DNA of 64,000 nucleotides from an uncultured delta proteobacterium. Lineage in GTDB: Bacteria; Myxococcota_A; Polyangia; Polyangiales; B10-G4. Below the pieces are notes generated by a model that was given only the letters and a program-made list of their open reading frames with translations, was not told the DNA's origin and made no database searches. Positions 7,642-50,778 of this stretch are shown in pieces. Position numbers and translations under genes: made by a program. How positions within the stretch are numbered: the first letter of the stretch is position 1; the number at the start of each line of letters is the position of its first letter. The stretch is from assembly GCA_963727445.1 (NCBI GenBank), contig CAVSGI010000013.1, positions 17,316-81,315 of the forward strand. Reading direction: 5' to 3'.

Positions 7642-8382
7642 ATGCGAGTCGCATTGGCTTTGGCTCTCGCGCTGCCGCTCTTCGGCTGCTCCGGTGACAG
7701 CGTGGGACATACGATCGAGTTCACGCTCAACGTGGAGTACTGGGACTTCGGTCCAGATCGCACCCCGGTTCCCGGGGCCGATGTGTGTGTCGACGAGCCC
7801 AGTGGTGGCGACTGCGGCACCTCGGACGCAGACGAAGTCGCAGTTCTCGACGTCCCGACGGACCAGAACGTTCTCCTCAGGATCAGCCATCCCACCATCT
7901 TTCCCGCGCTGGCTCCCATCTACGTGAGCTCTGACGACGAGGGTCGCTCGGACGTGGTCGATCCCTACTCCACCAACCTCGTGGCCGCGGTCGCAGCGAC
8001 CTTGGGCATGAGTGTCGACCCCACGAAGGGCCACCTGACCTTTGCTGCGGATCCCGGCGACTCGACCCATGCGGGCAGAATGGTGACGCTCCTCGATCCC
8101 GACACCGAAGAGCCGGTTTCCGATGCCAACGTGTTCTATCTGGACGAGGCGAATCTCCCCGATCCCATGGCGGACACGACCGTCGGCTCCGGCTCCGGCG
8201 GATTCGCCAACGCTCCCCCGGGGGAGTATTTCGTCGACTCGGTGTTCGACGAGCACTGCCGCATCGCTCGCGGGTGGAAGGAAGAGAAGGCTGACGGGAC
8301 CGTCACGATGCGCGCCCCCATCCGCGCCGGTCACATCACGCTGACCATCTGGGCCGACTGCATCAACACTGAATTCCCGTGA
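7642..8382 (+). CDS. Hypothetical lipoprotein
   Basis: Internal start MRVALALALALPLFGCSGD (lipobox). Diverse, non-shadow composition. Divergent from the PEGA gene across a 65-bp spacer. Confidence 0.55.
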   Translation: MRVALALALALPLFGCSGDSVGHTIEFTLNVEYWDFGPDRTPVPGADVCVDEPSGGDCGTSDADEVAVLDVPTDQNVLLRISHPTIFPALAPIYVSSDDEGRSDVVDPYSTNLVAAVAATLGMSVDPTKGHLTFAADPGDSTHAGRMVTLLDPDTEEPVSDANVFYLDEANLPDPMADTTVGSGSGGFANAPPGEYFVDSVFDEHCRIARGWKEEKADGTVTMRAPIRAGHITLTIWADCINTEFP

Positions 8383-8472
8383 GCGGCCTGCTCGGGGTCT
8401 GACGATGCGCGCAGGCGTCTCTTGCGCCTCGCCAGCGACCAGAGCGGAGTCCGTTTGTACTCGCGATCCCCT

Positions 8473-9298
8473 ATGCTGGTTGCGATGCGCGTCCTTTCGA
8501 TCATCGCGGTGCTCGTCGTCGCGGGCTGCAGCCGCAGCGAGCCAGCGACGGCGCCGCCGCCGGAGACGTCGCCGGTCGAGGAGACCGCGCCCGCCGAACT
8601 GCCGGCACCCACGTCTCCCACCATCGCCGTCACACGCGACGACTGCGAAGAGGTGGCCGCGCGCGCGGTCGACGTCGCGCCCATCATCGGCGTGGCAGTG
8701 GGCTCGCTGCGCGAGGCCGCCGGGGACGTGCCGGTCGCCTGTGACCGGGCCGTCCCTCGATGCGCGAGCGAAGACGATGGGACCACTTGTGCGTACGTCG
8801 TTCGCACTTACGACGCGTTTCATCGCGTCACCGTCTACCCGGCGGCCGCAGACGGCGGCCTGGTCGAAGGCACGGCCTTCGTCGCGCTTGACGGGACGGC
8901 CACCGAGCCGGCGCCCGAGCTCGACGTCCGCCGCTGGGCGGTCGAGGGCGACGTGCGCTGCCGCGGCGGAAGCCAACAGCACTCCTACGGACCAGCGACG
9001 CGCGGCGCACTCACCACCGGAAGCGCCGGCGTCACCTGCTGGACCCCCGAACCGTTCGATGTCACGGCCCAGCGCGTCACCACTCATTGGGCGCGCGGCG
9101 TCACCACTACCGAAGTCACCGTGGAGCCCGCCCGCACCCTCGGTGGCGAGCCCACCTCGAATCCGCGTCAGCTTCCCGCCGGCCCCGCTGCCCCTGCGCG
9201 AGTCCATCCCTCTCGAGGTCGAGCTCCGCATCGGTCCCCACGTCCTCGCGCCCGTCGGCCGCGTGACGACCCCCGAGCGCTATCCGATCCGGCGCTGA
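8473..9298 (+). CDS. Hypothetical lipoprotein with an apparent frameshift near 9160
   Basis: MLVAMRVLSIIAVLVVAGCSRSE lipobox. The frame opened at 8422 turns into R/P junk after '...TTEVTVEPARTLGGEPTS'. The adjacent frame that ends at 9298 is coding-like only over its last ~45 aa (RIRVSFPPAPLPLRESIPLEVELRIGPHVLAPVGRVTTPERYPIRR). Confidence 0.45.
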
Positions 9299-9426
9299 GA
9301 CGGAGCGCGCAACCGGACGCGGCCGCCATGCTGGCCTCCCTTCTTCGACGTCGAGCCAGGGACTCTGGCGCGCGGTATCCTCACGGGCGAGGGGGCGCGC
9401 GGCGCGTTTGAGCCGTTTTCGAGACC

Positions 9427-10113
9427 GTGTGGTCCTCATCACTCGTCGAGATGCCTCGAGCTACTGCATCCATCCTCGTCCGGGAGCCGACCCCCAAAGG
9501 GGAACCTCTCGATGCCGAGCGCGTGCTGGCGGCCGAGATCGCACCGGGATTCGACGACGCCACGCTCGTCCGGCGGGCCCTCGAGGGTGACACCTGGGCG
9601 GAAGAGGCCTTGTTTCGCCGCCATGTCCGGGTAATCGCCAGGACGGTGTTGCGACTTCTGGGCAATCGAAGCGAAGCGGAGGACGTCGTCCAGGACACCT
9701 TCGTTTCGGCGTTGGCCGACCTGCACAAGCTCCGGGATCCGTCCTCCGCTCGCACGTGGCTCATCGGGATCGCCGTTCACCGGGTCCACCGCCGGTTTCG
9801 CCGTCAGAAGCTGCGGCGGCTCCTCGGTCTCGAGCGCGCGTCCGAGGGGCCGCTCGAGCGACAGGCGAGCCCAGGACTAGACCCGGAGCGGCGCGCGGAG
9901 CTGGCCCTCCTCGATGCACAGCTCGAGCGCTTGCCCGCGAAGGATCGAACGGCGTGGATCCTCCGCAACGTCGAGGGCATGTCCCTCAAGGAGACCGCCG
10001 ACGCCATCGGCTGCTCCCTCGCGACAATCAAACGGCGCATCGCGAAGGCCGAGGCCGCAATCCGCGCTCACGTGGACCTCGCGCCACCATTGTCGGAGGT
10101 CTCCGATGGCTAG
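9427..10113 (+). CDS. ECF (σ70 group 4) RNA polymerase sigma factor
   Basis: Region-2-like 'EDVVQDTFVSALADLHKLRDPSSARTWLIGIAVHRVHRRFRR' and region-4 HTH 'RTAWILRNVEGMSLKETADAIGCSLATIKRRIAKA'. GTG start at 9427. Alternative ATG at 9451. Confidence 0.8.
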   Translation: MWSSSLVEMPRATASILVREPTPKGEPLDAERVLAAEIAPGFDDATLVRRALEGDTWAEEALFRRHVRVIARTVLRLLGNRSEAEDVVQDTFVSALADLHKLRDPSSARTWLIGIAVHRVHRRFRRQKLRRLLGLERASEGPLERQASPGLDPERRAELALLDAQLERLPAKDRTAWILRNVEGMSLKETADAIGCSLATIKRRIAKAEAAIRAHVDLAPPLSEVSDG

Positions 10114-47330: not shown

Positions 47331-48866
47331 TCAGGATCTGCGCGCGTAGCGGAGTTGGCGGCGCGTCGAAGGCGTGGTGGCGAGCTGCACCAGCGGGAAG
47401 CGCTGGCGATGCGCCGGGTGCTCGCGGGTGTCCCCGGAGCGCGCCGTCGGTCCGTCCTCTTCGTGGGGGACGCGTAAGCCGATCGCCGCCACACGCCCGC
47501 GGATGAAGTTGAGGAGGTTGATGTGGCCGCGCCGCACCTTCGAGGTGTCCCCCGAGGGAGTGAGATCGCGGCCGCGGTAGCCGACGGGCGGGCCGCCCCA
47601 GTAGCTCTCGCTGCGGATCTGCCCCGCGGGACACGCGGGCAGCTCGTGCCAGATGCGGTGGAGGATCGCGTAGCGGGTCTGGAAGGCGTTCTGCCCGGCG
47701 TCGCTCGTGACCCCCTCGGGGAGGCGCGCGTTCTGGTCGGGCATGCCGCGACCGCCGACGATCCCCGAGGCGGGCCGAAGCATGATGTCCTCGCCCAGGC
47801 TGCTCTCGTCGTAGCGGTAGTGGAGCCGGGTGAGGGTGAGCTGCGCCGGGTAGACGCGGCGAGGCAGGACGTCGCCGCCCAGGGTGAGGACGTCTTGTTC
47901 GGAGAGGGTGGGCCCCGGGCAGGGGTCGCAGCTGCCGGCCGTCCACGCGTACTCGGTGACGATGGCCCCTGGATTGCGGCGGGAGAGCTCGTCGAAGACC
48001 GCGGCATAGACCTCGCCGAAGCGCCCCTTCGCGCGGCCGCGGACGTGCAGGTTGGTCGGCGCGAGGACGTTCGGGTAGTTCGCCGCCTCGAAGCGCGTCT
48101 CGCCGAGGACGTGGATGAGCAGGTCTTGTGCGCCGCCGCTGTTGATCAGACCCAGACGAACCGGAAGCGCGAACTGGTTCGAGTCGTAGTGGATGCGGAG
48201 CGGCGAGAGACGGGCGACGCCGTGATCGAAGTGGACGCGGTCGACGTCCACCTTGGCGACGAAGAAGCGGTGGCCGCTCTCGATGTAGGGCCTGAGCAGC
48301 TCCGAAGCGCCGCTGGGGATGTTGTAGTGATTGTCGACGAGCCAGGTCTCGAGGGCGGAGGAGTCGGAGGCGTCGAGGACGACGACGTCGTACTCGCCCA
48401 CCTGGAACTGTGCGGTGATGCGGACCGCGCTGCCGCCGCCACCGCGACCCGTACCGCGAAGAGCGTAGCCGACTGAACCGAATCCCATGCCCCCGTAGCC
48501 TCGGCCGTAGCCACCGTACGGCCTGTAGCACTCGCCGGGATGCTCCCAGTACTCGACGAGGCGCGGCGCGGCGAGGTTCTCGATTTTCTCGAAGACCTCG
48601 GCGGAGAGCGTGCGCACGTTCTCGCGCTCGATCGCCTGCGGCACCGGCACCACCATCGCGAAGTCCTCGGCAGGCCCCTGATAGTCGTTGCGCATCGACA
48701 AGACCGTGCGCGTCCCCTGCCGCATCATCACCACGCTCGTCGCCGGGTTCTTCAGCTCCTCCTCCCCCGGCTTCACGTAAAACCCACAGAACGCCGCAGC
48801 TGTCCCCGCAGACGCGAGGCAGTAAATCGCCGCGGCGCAACCCATCACGGCACGCGCCATCGTCAT
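47331..48866 (-). CDS. Secreted DUF2330-like protein; C-terminal ~60 aa uncertain
   Basis: Signal peptide MTMARAVMGCAAAIYCLASAGTAAA then 'FCGFYV'. Gly/Tyr-rich 'YGGYGRGYGGMGFG' and DUF2330-like blocks. The tail (...RRQLRYARRS) looks like shadow. The small TM ORF at 46781-47297 follows in the same frame 33 nt after its stop. Confidence 0.5.
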   Translation of the reverse strand: MTMARAVMGCAAAIYCLASAGTAAAFCGFYVKPGEEELKNPATSVVMMRQGTRTVLSMRNDYQGPAEDFAMVVPVPQAIERENVRTLSAEVFEKIENLAAPRLVEYWEHPGECYRPYGGYGRGYGGMGFGSVGYALRGTGRGGGGSAVRITAQFQVGEYDVVVLDASDSSALETWLVDNHYNIPSGASELLRPYIESGHRFFVAKVDVDRVHFDHGVARLSPLRIHYDSNQFALPVRLGLINSGGAQDLLIHVLGETRFEAANYPNVLAPTNLHVRGRAKGRFGEVYAAVFDELSRRNPGAIVTEYAWTAGSCDPCPGPTLSEQDVLTLGGDVLPRRVYPAQLTLTRLHYRYDESSLGEDIMLRPASGIVGGRGMPDQNARLPEGVTSDAGQNAFQTRYAILHRIWHELPACPAGQIRSESYWGGPPVGYRGRDLTPSGDTSKVRRGHINLLNFIRGRVAAIGLRVPHEEDGPTARSGDTREHPAHRQRFPLVQLATTPSTRRQLRYARRS

Positions 48867-48916
48867 GCCGGTTTAGACCCCCATCAGCCCCCCAAGTTCC
48901 CAACGGGGACGGTCTA

Positions 48917-49093
48917 CACTTTTCAACTTTTGCCCCAAACCAGACGATGGGGACGGTCTACACTTTTCAACTTTTGCCCCAAACCAGACGAGGCGGGCAA
49001 AGTTGAAAAGTGTAGACCGTCCCCGTTAGAGGCGGGCAAAAGTTGAAAAGTGTAGACCGTCCCCGTTAGAGGCGGGCGGGGAGGAGGAGGGTG
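48917..49093. repeat. Four-copy 43-bp repeat: two direct copies then two inverted copies (perfect long palindrome) with an AT-rich core
   Basis: Direct 'aacggggacggtctacacttttcaacttttgccccaaaccagacga' x2 (48925-49010), then 'gcgggcaaa(a)gttgaaaagtgtagaccgtccccgttagag' x2 (49012-49090), which is the reverse complement of the core. The core contains TTGAAA-N17-TTAGAG-like hexamers. It lies between the 49066 gene stop and the DUF2330 start. Confidence 0.85.
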
Positions 49094-50778
49094 AAGGTGC
49101 CGTCGGCGGCGACGACGGTGCGGCCGACGGCGACGTTGCGCTCGGTTCCGTCGTCTTCGGTGATCATCGCGAAGGCGCGGATCTCGGCACCCGGATGGGC
49201 CGAGAGGGTGCCGGTGACGGGGATCGGAGCGGTGACCTCGAAGACGTCGCTGTAGCTGGTGCCGGAGCCCATGGCGCCCGAGCCCACGACGAAGCTGGGC
49301 CGAACCACCCAGGGGAAGTTGCTCTCGGGCGGCGGCTTGATGAAGAGGTCGTAGACGCCCACGTCGAGGGGGATGTTGAACTGGCCGGTCGGGTCGGTGG
49401 TCGTCTGGCCAGTGCGGTTGAAGCGCGCCGCCGGCAGCTCCTCGAGCGCCCGGCCGAGGGCGGTGGCCGTGACGGCGGCGTCGCGCATCAGGCGGCTGTC
49501 GCCCGTGCGGACGATGCCGCCCACCGCGGCGCGCTCCGGAAGCTGAAAGAGCTGGCCCTGGATGCACTCGCGCGCAGGATCGGCGTTGATCATGAAGGCG
49601 GACTCGTGGAGCACGCCGTAGCGCGACACGTCGTGATCAGCGGGAGGCGTCACCAGCACGTCGTAGGAGCCAGGCAGGAGCATCGCCTCGAAGGTACCGT
49701 CGGCCTGCGCGGTGAGGGTGGTCTCGAAAGTCCCGGAGAGCCCGGTCTCGGGGTCGAGCACCTCGTCGGTGGTGAAGGTGATCGTCGCGCTTTCGGCGAC
49801 CTCGCCCGTGCTCCCGAGCTCGACGCTCCCGCGATAGCAGACCGGCCGAATCATCGGGACGAGGATCCGAACGAAGCCGTCGGGGTCCGCCACCAGGTAG
49901 TCGGGGTTTGCGAAGATGGTCGGGCTGGTCGTGTCCTCGCCAGTACCGATTCGGATCAGGTAGCTCTCGGTGTTGGGCAAGAGGTCGAGGGTGAACTGCC
50001 CCATGGTGCCCTCGTCGGCGGAGGTCACGACGGTGGAGGACACCCGCCGGCCCGTCTCCGCGTCCACCGCCCAGACCGTCCGGCCCGGCGCGGGGAGCTC
50101 CATGCTGTTGATCACCAGGCCGTGAAGCTGCTCGAAGGTCTCGGGATAGTTGATCGCGATCGACGCATAATCGCCGCCGCCCGGGACGGGTCGCCCGAGA
50201 ATGCGGAGCGGCGGCACCCGGCTCGCCCAATCGCCGACGGGCGTCACGGTGATGTCGTACTCACGGTCGGGCACGAGCTCCGTCTGAAAGTCCGCCTCGG
50301 TTCCTTCGACCGCGTAGGGCATCGCCGACGTCGTCGTCTCGACCTCGATGCGGCGAGCGCCGGGAAAGGCGCCCGGACGCGAGAACTTGAGGTTGGCGCT
50401 GACCGGCCCTTCCTCACCGGGGACGCGCACGGTCCCGATGACGGTGATGGAAGGGGGCAGGGGGAGCTCGCCCAGGTCCGTCGCGCCGCTCACGTCGTAG
50501 GGGCCGAGGCTGTGCGTCGCATTCGCGATCGCGCCCGCCGCAGCGGGGGGCGTCACCTCGAGCCCGATGTGCAGGGTCTCGGTGTCCGAGGTGACGCACA
50601 TGCCCAGGTCGACGGCACACACCGCGCCGGTGCAATCGGAATCCGACGAGCACCGGTTCTCGATGGGCGTCTCGCTGGCGAGCGACAGCCCACAGCCCGA
50701 GAGCGCCAGAAGCGCGAGCATGCCGAGAGCACATCTCGGGAATGCGACCGAGCATCGCGCAGCGCGGCCCCGCGTCAT
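49066..50778 (-). CDS. Large hypothetical lipoprotein with β-rich / Ig-like repeats
   Basis: Internal start at 50778 (MTRGRAARCSVAFPRCALGMLALLALSGCGLS lipobox). The upstream part of the ORF is shadow. β-strand-rich T/V/G composition. The start overlaps the stop of the next gene as ATGA. Confidence 0.55.
   Translation of the reverse strand: MTRGRAARCSVAFPRCALGMLALLALSGCGLSLASETPIENRCSSDSDCTGAVCAVDLGMCVTSDTETLHIGLEVTPPAAAGAIANATHSLGPYDVSGATDLGELPLPPSITVIGTVRVPGEEGPVSANLKFSRPGAFPGARRIEVETTTSAMPYAVEGTEADFQTELVPDREYDITVTPVGDWASRVPPLRILGRPVPGGGDYASIAINYPETFEQLHGLVINSMELPAPGRTVWAVDAETGRRVSSTVVTSADEGTMGQFTLDLLPNTESYLIRIGTGEDTTSPTIFANPDYLVADPDGFVRILVPMIRPVCYRGSVELGSTGEVAESATITFTTDEVLDPETGLSGTFETTLTAQADGTFEAMLLPGSYDVLVTPPADHDVSRYGVLHESAFMINADPARECIQGQLFQLPERAAVGGIVRTGDSRLMRDAAVTATALGRALEELPAARFNRTGQTTTDPTGQFNIPLDVGVYDLFIKPPPESNFPWVVRPSFVVGSGAMGSGTSYSDVFEVTAPIPVTGTLSAHPGAEIRAFAMITEDDGTERNVAVGRTVVAADGTFTLLLPARL

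Follow-up and report, generated by a model that had tools for sequence, protein, structure and literature searches.

Why should a short gap between two genes of a Myxococcota genome hold a palindrome built from four copies of one repeat? The locus lies in a stretch of 64,000 nucleotides (the window) of an uncultured delta proteobacterium (contig CAVSGI010000013.1), between the stop codon of a lipoprotein-like gene (49066) and the ATG of a DUF2330 gene (48866), both on the minus strand, which is where an earlier note, made from the letters alone, had placed it. That note had offered a bidirectional terminator, a promoter or operator with four binding sites, and an insertion resembling a miniature transposable element with inverted repeats (MITE) as explanations. 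Our analyses make it probable that the array is a non-autonomous element of the repetitive extragenic palindromic (REP)/REPIN-like kind, situated in the short gap between these two genes, for which a REP-associated tyrosine transposase (RAYT)-like enzyme would be the partner. Loci compared with the window are numbered below with the prefix L.

The array comprises four unit copies, two direct and two inverted (++--), at window positions 48902-49064, or 48902-49077 when the host flank is included. The extent first proposed, 48917-49093, was displaced, as the repeat runs from 48902 to 49077 and its last 13 nt are the end of the upstream gene. The consensus unit is GGGGACGGTCTACACTTTTCAACTTT(T)GCCC, of 29-32 nt, and all four copies share a stretch of 29 nt (AACGGGGACGGTCTACACTTTTCAACTTT). 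The unit length of ~43 bp given earlier did not hold; 44 and 40 nt are the periods of the direct copies (which begin at 48905 and 48949 and are identical at 43/44 positions) and of the inverted copies (48993-49024 and 49033-49064, the inner one short of one A), respectively. Complementarity between the arms is 100% over 26-31 nt. The parts of the array, in window order, are as follows.

48905-48936 (48902-48936 with the leading AAC), plus strand: unit A1, outer left arm, AAC followed by GGGGACGGTCTACACTTTTCAACTTTTGCCCC; weight-matrix score 32.7 against the family logo given below.
48937-48948, no strand: spacer AAACCAGACGAT, included in the 44-nt tandem period and recurring as AAACCAGACGAG at 48981-48992.
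48949-48980, plus strand: unit A2, inner left arm, with the same sequence as A1.
48981-48992, no strand: central loop of the palindrome, AAACCAGACGAG, whose last 3 bases open a copy of the host-flank 9-mer GAGGCGGGC (48990-48998).
48993-49024, minus strand: unit B1, inner right arm, with AAAG in place of AAAAG (3 mismatches when ungapped); weight-matrix score 31.0.
49025-49031, no strand: spacer GTTAGAG, which together with 49032-49037 is a copy of host GTTAGAGGCGGGC (the stop-codon region of the upstream gene); part of the 40-nt period.
49033-49064, minus strand: unit B2, outer right arm, with its tip directly against the upstream gene's stop codon.
49065-49077, minus strand: the original host flank GTTAGAGGCGGGC of 13 nt, with the stop codon TAA (49066-49068) and the final codons of the lipoprotein-like gene (CCC GCC CGC CTC TAA).

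Each unit is a module of an 8-nt tip, GGGGACGG, behind which stand two short direct sub-repeats that are rich in T and spaced by 8 nt (CACTTTTC and AACTTTTG), and the GGGGAC tip of A1 faces outward, toward the DUF2330 promoter. With up to 3 mismatches the 32-mer occurs four times in the window versus 0.00 times in 100 shuffles, and the family weight matrix found no further copies, even degenerate ones, in the 64 kb. The four-copy palindrome is a genuine, non-random structure. The layout of two direct and two inverted copies thus stood, far beyond chance, whereas its description as perfect has to be weakened to near-perfect (43/44, with B1 one A short). The AT-rich core in surroundings of ~70% GC was also borne out, with 31% GC in the 16-nt core, 52.5% in the array and 69% in the window. 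When folded, as the earlier note had proposed, either strand forms a two-tier hairpin (minus-strand RNA, -145.8 kcal/mol, z = -17; DNA, -79.7 kcal/mol, z = -13.5). For a lone unit the folding energy is -1.2 to -1.3 kcal/mol, a value that 180-187 of 200 shuffles match or beat, so the unit is not self-complementary.

Orthologous loci bear directly on how the array came to be where it is. In L001, whose DUF2330 protein is 74% identical and whose gene order is kept, the two genes are 46 nt apart and the array is absent; the gap reads ...cccgcccgcctc tag agtccccgagtc ggaacttgg..., and the upstream orthologue ends in ...cccgcccgcctctag. The gap is also short and free of the repeat in L003 (DUF2330 78% identical). 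Because these two orthologous loci lack it, the array is, on sequence comparison, an insertion between the two genes. In the closest orthologue, L002 (DUF2330 80% identical), a different but related stacked inverted repeat occupies the equivalent site and adjoins a scaffold gap (a run of N). This array (356-450) reads GTAAACTT/GGGGACGTACCTCCCACGTAAACTT ... AAGTTTACGCCTGAGGTACGTCCCC, where the slash marks the junction with the flank, and is also given as GGGGACGTACCTC...CGTAAACTT. It may have resided there for a long time and co-evolved, or elements may have inserted more than once at a preferred site. In L001 (9955-9975) a GTCCCCG heptamer persists 4 bases ahead of GGAACTT, at the place where the outer unit ends in the window; it may be a remnant of the tip of a lost element, or a target that existed before.

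The array carries copies of its own host flank. In gene orientation it begins CCCGCCTC-TAAC-(unit)-CCCGCCTC-TAAC-(unit)-CCCGCCTC-GTCTGGTTTGGGGC-(unit') and continues ATC-GTCTGGTTTGGGGC-(unit')-GTT-GGGAACTTGGGG, with the prime for the opposite orientation. The last 8-9 nt of the upstream gene, CCCGCCTC(T), are present three times, in the host flank itself (49065-49077) and at 49029-49037 and 48990-48998, interleaved with the two units of that side. The spacers of the other side are identical to one another and have a loose likeness to the flank of the -35 box (TTGGGG). Stacked arrays elsewhere also copy their flank: in L084 ATCCACTT stands ahead of each unit, in L029 TAGTYCTGG follows each unit, and in L014 GTGTCCCC plus tgcgcct is repeated. 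Based on the copies in the window and in these three arrays, stacking looks like local re-duplication of the unit with adjacent bases, and not like nested insertion of complete elements; the unit would have been re-duplicated along with 8-13 nt of neighbouring host sequence. In L004 (481-675), beside a single unit, the opening ~22 nt of the adjacent gene are present a second time in inverted orientation (gatgagtcgattgttcgttcgcat / gcgaacgaacaatcgactcatc), which hints that local fold-back copying of host DNA may accompany these repeats.

The search for dispersed copies that the earlier note had called for was successful. The exact 23-mer of the unit was found on two metagenome contigs, L004 and L005, in unrelated contexts, and had no match in a genome collection with one genome per species. 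L005 holds an inverted dimer with a 44-nt loop unrelated to that of the window, 3 nt beyond an unrelated gene's stop codon and with the junction CTAAC/GGGGAC as in the window. In L004 a single unit precedes a partial tip (GACCGTCCCC).

Comparison of the window with L002 suggested GGGGAC and AACTT as conserved blocks, and the pattern GGGGAC-N14-AACTT-N20-50-AAGTT-N14-GTCCCC was used to search for a wider family. This palindromic pattern matched at least 98 genome loci in at least 8 phyla. The matches listed came from Gammaproteobacteria, Desulfobacterota, Myxococcota, Planctomycetota, Omnitrophota, Chlorobiota, Bacillota and Actinomycetota, with hosts that included Pseudohongiella and other Gammaproteobacteria, Coxiellaceae, Rickettsiales, Clostridiales, Coriobacteriales, Desulfobacterales (including the isolate Desulfatitalea alkaliphila) and Myxococcota/Polyangiales. 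Among the 259 distinct units of these matches, position 7 is A or G in 258, the free positions 13-17 form a second AACTT, about half start with GGGGACA[C/G], and conservation ends after position 27. Such strong conservation at positions that the pattern did not fix shows that the matches are not due to chance. The family logo is (T)A/GGGGAC-R-C-T-N-N-T-AACTT-A-N-Y-AACTT-A-A, and the window unit fits it with CACTT as its first sub-repeat. The closest variants of the unit among the matches listed were in the Polyangiales metagenome-assembled genome (MAG) L024 (GGGGACGGTTTCACCTTTTCAACTT) and in two other 'delta' MAGs, L068 and L093.

The layout of the window is not peculiar to it. Among the matches listed 94 had the architecture +-, 7 were ++-, 6 were +-- and 5, including the window, were ++--, so that two direct plus two inverted copies is a recurrent form. 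Other ++-- arrays are in L009, L061, L070 and L084, and these include chromosome-level MAG assemblies such as OZ245834.1. These observations bear on whether the array might be an assembly artefact, that is, a collapsed or chimeric palindrome. Palindromes of tandem copies are hard to assemble, and the orthologous site of L002 adjoins a scaffold gap. Against this, the exact unit occurs on independent metagenome contigs, the ++-- form occurs in chromosome-level assemblies, and the copies of host flank inside the array follow an orderly pattern, and we give an artefact hardly any credence.

Family arrays show consistent habits in where they sit. Among 85 arrays with two flanking open reading frames (ORFs), 52 lie between co-directional, 22 between convergent and 11 between divergent genes, and 74 adjoin the 3' end of a gene, with the stop codon usually a few to 30 nt away. 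Some 8-kb blocks carry 3-5 arrays (L061, L085, L088 and L051, from Pseudohongiella and related MAGs), which is a REP-like density for a class of repeat called sparse in the literature. One array, in the Coxiellaceae MAG L064 (4455-4617), is 17 nt from a tRNA gene. Position -1 of the flanks is A in 59% and position +1 is T in 58% of cases; a direct flank match of 2 bp (TA) occurs in 26 of 110 arrays versus 12.8 expected, with nothing longer enriched, and inverted-complementary flanks run on beyond the tips for at least 4 nt in 23 of the 110 versus 1.7 expected. Within genomes the arms are 84-100% identical and the loops average 51-58%, a level judged unrelated without a random baseline, and a few pairs share loops. 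The spacing of stacked units varies from 40 to 130 nt inside one genome.

If the element were a classical MITE that had arisen from a DDE insertion sequence, say one of the IS630/Tc1-like kind that targets TA, with inverted repeat-direct repeat (IR-DR) ends that each hold two transposase-binding sites, the enrichment of TA on both sides of family arrays would be accounted for, and the 2+2 layout is reminiscent of the IR-DR ends of transposons. We nevertheless regard such an origin as improbable. The interior differs between copies, both between the loop of L005 and that of the window and between loops within genomes, the spacing of stacked units is not constant in a single genome, and the outer flanks of the window (...CCCAAC/ and /GTTAGAG...) are neither TA on both sides nor direct repeats. 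Furthermore, no DDE transposase was found in ~700 kb around the arrays, and repeats tipped with GGG(G)AC or GGG(G)TC flank Y1 transposase genes, as described below. The proposal of a MITE-like insertion was essentially right as to insertion and dispersal, the array being absent from two orthologous loci, but the element is nearer to a REP/REPIN, with only an arm of ~27 nt conserved and no target duplication beyond TA at family arrays. The conduct of the family is of the REP/REPIN type and not that of a classical MITE.

Attempts to place the repeat among described elements by other routes gave little. In Rfam, neither the window nor 18 family loci had a hit at the gathering score, and the E-value threshold brought up only sub-threshold microRNA-precursor models, i.e., 'some hairpin'. 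A plasmid search with a concatenate of 43 unit variants had no match, and literature searches by sequence string returned nothing relevant to the unit. Candidate full-length elements, such as L088 4205-6402, held ordinary genes only, and an ORF adjoining an array in L103 was ruled out as a transposase since it encodes an HTH_3 protein. We conclude that the array is a member, and an ordinary feature, of a little-described cross-phylum family.

A candidate for the enzyme that serves this family came from published work on RAYT-like proteins. The passages on TIRYT genes in Di Nocera 2013 (PMC3733652) describe RAYT-like tyrosine transposases flanked by inverted repeats that share GGGGWSAS, and not by GTAG REPs, and report that some of these inverted repeats are repeat families found in dimers or clusters. 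According to the relevant parts of Quentin 2018 (PMC6006769), TIRYT corresponds to TnpA-Y1 subclass 2.1 and to RAYT Group 1 of Bertels, with the repeat consensus GGGG[AT][CG]A[CG] and a C-terminal helix-turn-helix. Among our loci, L076 encodes a Y1_Tnp protein (PF01797) whose homologues are called 'REP element-mobilizing transposase RayT' by JGI and in some cases carry Bac_DnaA_C. Inverted repeats tipped with GGG(G)AC or GGG(G)TC accompany 11 of the 15 RayT-like genes that were inspected, at 50-120 nt on the upstream side and close by on the downstream side, as follows.

L076 and L132: flank GGGGACGTTCC...
L104 and L109: flanks TA/GGGGACGTACGTCAGA ... TCTGACGTACGTCCCC/TA.
L115: flank GGGGACAGAT..., with two direct copies upstream and one inverted copy downstream.
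L113: flank TAGGGACGGTTCTTTTTGATTTTTG, with the tip duplicated.
L121: upstream, GGGGACGGGGGTTTTTGCAT as a dimer; downstream, a single unit.
L127: upstream, GGGGACGGTTCTTTTTGATTATTTTG; downstream, a stack of two copies with extra copies of tip and flank.
L135: flank GGGACGGTTCTTTTTGCTTTT.
L111, L112, L114, L116 and L118: flanks GGG(G)TCAG...

The GGG(G)ACGG tip of the window is shared with L113, L121, L127 and L135, all from Firmicutes, and the exact 8-mer tip of the window flanks the RayT-like genes of L121 and L127. In L113, L127 and L135 two T-rich sub-repeats, 7-9 nt apart, stand behind the tip as they do in the window unit. Dimer and stacked arrangements recur around the RayT-like genes themselves, and away from the gene the repeats occur as a single unit in L004, a dimer in L005 and a cluster in the window. 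Based on the shared tip, the design of the unit and these arrangements, we infer a link between the window unit and such an enzyme.

Several observations weigh against this link and against the reading that it supports. In the parts of Quentin 2018 (PMC6006769) that treat subclass 2.1, no REP-like sequences were found near these genes, and the account of RAYT Group 1 in Bertels 2017 (PMC5581495) gives only ~12 copies for the 16-mers that flank them. The window tip matches the published consensus at 7 of 8 positions, with G for the published A at position 7. The inverted repeat was absent from 4 of the 15 RayT-like genes inspected (L110, L117, L119 and L120), and none of those inspected had the AACTT-N3-AACTT subclass on both sides. 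A partial AACTT-type unit at L076 (2275-2293, 47-65 nt past the stop codon) was dropped as a link, since the orthologue L132, which is 97% identical, has no such unit; its place beside the L076 gene may be coincidental. No Y1_Tnp ORF is present in the 64-kb window, which holds only one array, so that the genome may carry few copies. An all-against-all BLASTP of 1731 ORFs near the at least 98 arrays revealed no recurrent protein family apart from ABC ATPases and short-chain dehydrogenases. Finally, we know of no biochemistry for subclass 2.1 enzymes. The dense families in uncultured lineages were either missed earlier or are served by another partner.

RayT-like genes themselves differ in how they are maintained. 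In L121-L126 (between FAA_hydrolase and SIR2) and in L127-L131 (between transketolase and topoisomerase) the RayT-like protein has one fixed genomic context across many independent samples, and these genes behave as single-copy, host-like genes. Contigs of no more than 1.1-1.4 kb carry many of the close homologues of the RayT-like protein from Desulfatitalea. This suggests that in Desulfobacterota the gene is present as a multi-copy element at which assemblies break, in contrast to its fixed, single-copy state in Firmicutes. In L113 (806-2210, Acetoanaerobium noterae) GGGACGGTTC inverted repeats enclose the RayT-like gene and an ORF of 117 aa with a thioredoxin-like CPHC motif, possibly a passenger gene.

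Weighing these points, we still consider a REP/REPIN-like element the probable identity of the array. Two units in inverted orientation constitute a hairpin-forming dimer, and the array in the window stacks two such layers to give ++--. The enzyme that recognises and copies the units would most likely be a Y1 (HUH) tyrosine transposase of the RAYT-like type whose gene lies at another place in the genome; its class has variously been named TIRYT, TnpA-Y1 subclass 2.1 and RAYT Group 1. If it works as IS200/IS605 and TnpA-REP do, its substrate would be single-stranded DNA with paired inverted units. A bolder reading, which we put forward only tentatively and hold to be doubtful, is that GGGGAC-(AACTT)x2 units are a cross-phylum REPIN-like population of the largest RAYT class that multiplies unlike canonical REPs. 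A non-palindromic module of 27 nt would then be copied with a few adjacent host bases, and such copying would lead to ++-- stacks, duplicated tips and locus-specific palindromic flanks. Under the same tentative scheme, the differing arrays of the window and L002 would reflect long residence and co-evolution with the enzyme of each genome.

The resemblance to repeats of the TIRYT, subclass 2.1 or RAYT Group 1 class is close in some respects. Both share a tip of the form GGGG-A-C-(A/G)-S and extragenic, non-self-complementary units that occur as singles, inverted dimers and clusters. By contrast, the AACTT-N3-AACTT logo and the flank-copying ++-- stacks go unmentioned in the pertinent sections of PMC3733652, PMC6006769 and PMC5581495, and the families described there are few or 'moderately abundant', compared with 3-5 arrays per 8 kb in some genomes here. 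The window array is also like canonical REP, REPIN and bacterial interspersed mosaic element (BIME) sequences (RAYT Groups 2 and 3), which are short extragenic repeats, mostly 3' of genes, with hairpin-forming inverted doublets, arms kept more than the spacer, genome-specific variants and typically a single-copy Y1 gene as partner. However, the window unit has no hairpin of its own and no GT[AG]G foot tag (GTAG is present inside GTGTAGACC but not beside a stem), and its family stacks as ++-- instead of alternating and extends over at least 8 phyla including Gram-positives.

With TA-flanked MITEs such as Correia and RUP the array has in common its small size, lack of coding capacity, terminal inverted repeats, intergenic position, TA beside the ends and possible RNA hairpins in the 3' untranslated region (UTR). 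It differs from them in that its interior varies between copies, no autonomous DDE partner came to light around the arrays and what is repeated is the unit and not a whole element. The presumed enzyme would belong to the same HUH-Y1 superfamily (PF01797) as the TnpA of IS200/IS605, and in neither case is there a long target duplication. The ends of these insertion sequences are subterminal hairpins, whereas those of the array are inverted copies, and the element here is free of genes.

Some further identities were considered and rejected. A CRISPR array is at odds with two direct copies per side, identical spacers of 12 and 7 nt and inverted halves, and the Rfam hit to CRISPR-DR15 scored 14.5 bits versus a gathering score of 36. 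The GGGG tip would fit Tn3-family ends, but the 5-bp duplication and the inner TAAG box are absent; multi-site ends of the Tn7, Mu or Tn402 type would have TG/CA termini, which are absent; and the position of AACTT matches IS1 ends, but the 8-9-bp duplication is absent around the arrays. The spacer GTTAGAG is unlike the GTTRRRY of integron attC sites, and the orientation varies. Against a sigma-54 promoter plus upstream activator site stands the GG-N10-GC spacing, which is not kept in L001.

The genes on either side of the array, and the candidate promoter between the array and the DUF2330 gene, are as follows.

47331-48866, minus strand: DUF2330 gene (511 aa), downstream neighbour, with its ATG at 48864-48866.
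48873-48900, minus strand: candidate DUF2330 promoter, outside the array, with GGAACTT (48894-48900), N16, TCTAA (48873-48877) and 6 nt to the ATG.
49066-50742, minus strand: lipoprotein-like gene, upstream neighbour, with a CarboxypepD_reg domain hit and an uncertain start codon; its L001 orthologue is at 8266-9954.

Source names of DUF2330 homologues include Sandaracinaceae, Myxococcales, Minicystis and MYXO-CTERM, and these assign the window to Myxococcota. In gene direction the array opens at the stop codon (CTC TAA C/GGGGAC) and closes 1-4 nt ahead of GGAACTT. In four aligned orthologous loci GGAACTTGG-N13-GGTCTAA-N4/5-GCATGA is invariant and the bases around it are variable. Promoters of the extracytoplasmic function (ECF)/sigma-E type have GGAAC at -35 and a TCTAA-like -10, and we take GGAACTT-N16-TCTAA to be of this type. 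The conserved DUF2330 promoter would be this ECF-type motif with a nearly leaderless transcript, and not the TTGAAA/TTAGAG hexamers pointed out earlier.

A cis-regulatory role, in which four transcription-factor sites control the DUF2330 promoter or the array is a promoter itself, might be read into the closeness of the array to the -35-like box and the related stacked array at the equivalent site of L002. TTGAAA-N17-TTAGAG is also literally present, twice on the plus strand; in the minus-strand counterparts the second hexamer is TCGTCT or TTGGGA. We think such a role very unlikely. The ECF-type motif is kept in the array-free loci L001 and L003, the unit also follows unrelated genes and its family takes 3' intergenic positions across phyla, and an exact identity of 26 nt between unrelated loci far exceeds what an operator needs. 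In addition, a consensus scan of 48500-49500 found no sigma-70-like site. The earlier idea of a promoter or operator with four sites is thus not upheld, the one promoter motif seen being separate from and independent of the array.

As regards the effect on the host, the array would make up the 3' end (3' UTR) of the transcript of the lipoprotein-like gene and fold into a highly stable hairpin, which could shield the 3' end of the message or hinder read-through, and the DUF2330 gene would keep its own ECF-type promoter directly downstream. Such a 3'-UTR hairpin on the upstream transcript is the most likely, if unproven, effect. That the array evolved or is maintained primarily as a terminator or RNA-stabilising hairpin is a separate proposition, compatible with a mobile origin. 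It draws on the stability of the predicted RNA hairpin, the start of the array at a stop codon and the preference of the family for gene 3' ends, and the functions proposed for REPs in the part of PMC3733652 that discusses them include both termination and mRNA stabilisation. We deem it unlikely as the primary explanation: a scan for terminator-like sites was negative at the array, where the hairpin is followed by GUUGGGAACUU with no T tract, orthologues do without the array, and a need for a stem would leave the conservation of GGGGAC and AACTT across phyla unexplained. The array might act as a bidirectional terminator, as first suggested: the very stable hairpin favours this, but the T tract is missing.

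For the locus, these findings mean that annotation should treat the palindrome as a repeat element and not as a promoter or operator. Its insertion explains an intergenic gap that is ~150 nt longer than in relatives, and it marks a site where assemblies of related genomes break. The picture at the level of the family, with its cross-phylum logo, non-palindromic units and flank-copying stacks, is more interesting than the locus. Non-palindromic units with a GGGGAC tip and two AACTT sub-repeats form dense, REP-like populations in many uncultured lineages, e.g., Pseudohongiella, Desulfobacterales, Planctomycetota and Myxococcota, whereas few or no associated repeats are reported for RAYT Group 1, subclass 2.1 or TIRYT in the corresponding parts of PMC3733652, PMC6006769 and PMC5581495. 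If it is true that enzymes of this group serve these units, the most widespread class of RAYT would gain its missing repeat partners, and the stacks with copied host flank would offer a handle, at the level of sequence, on how such repeats are generated.

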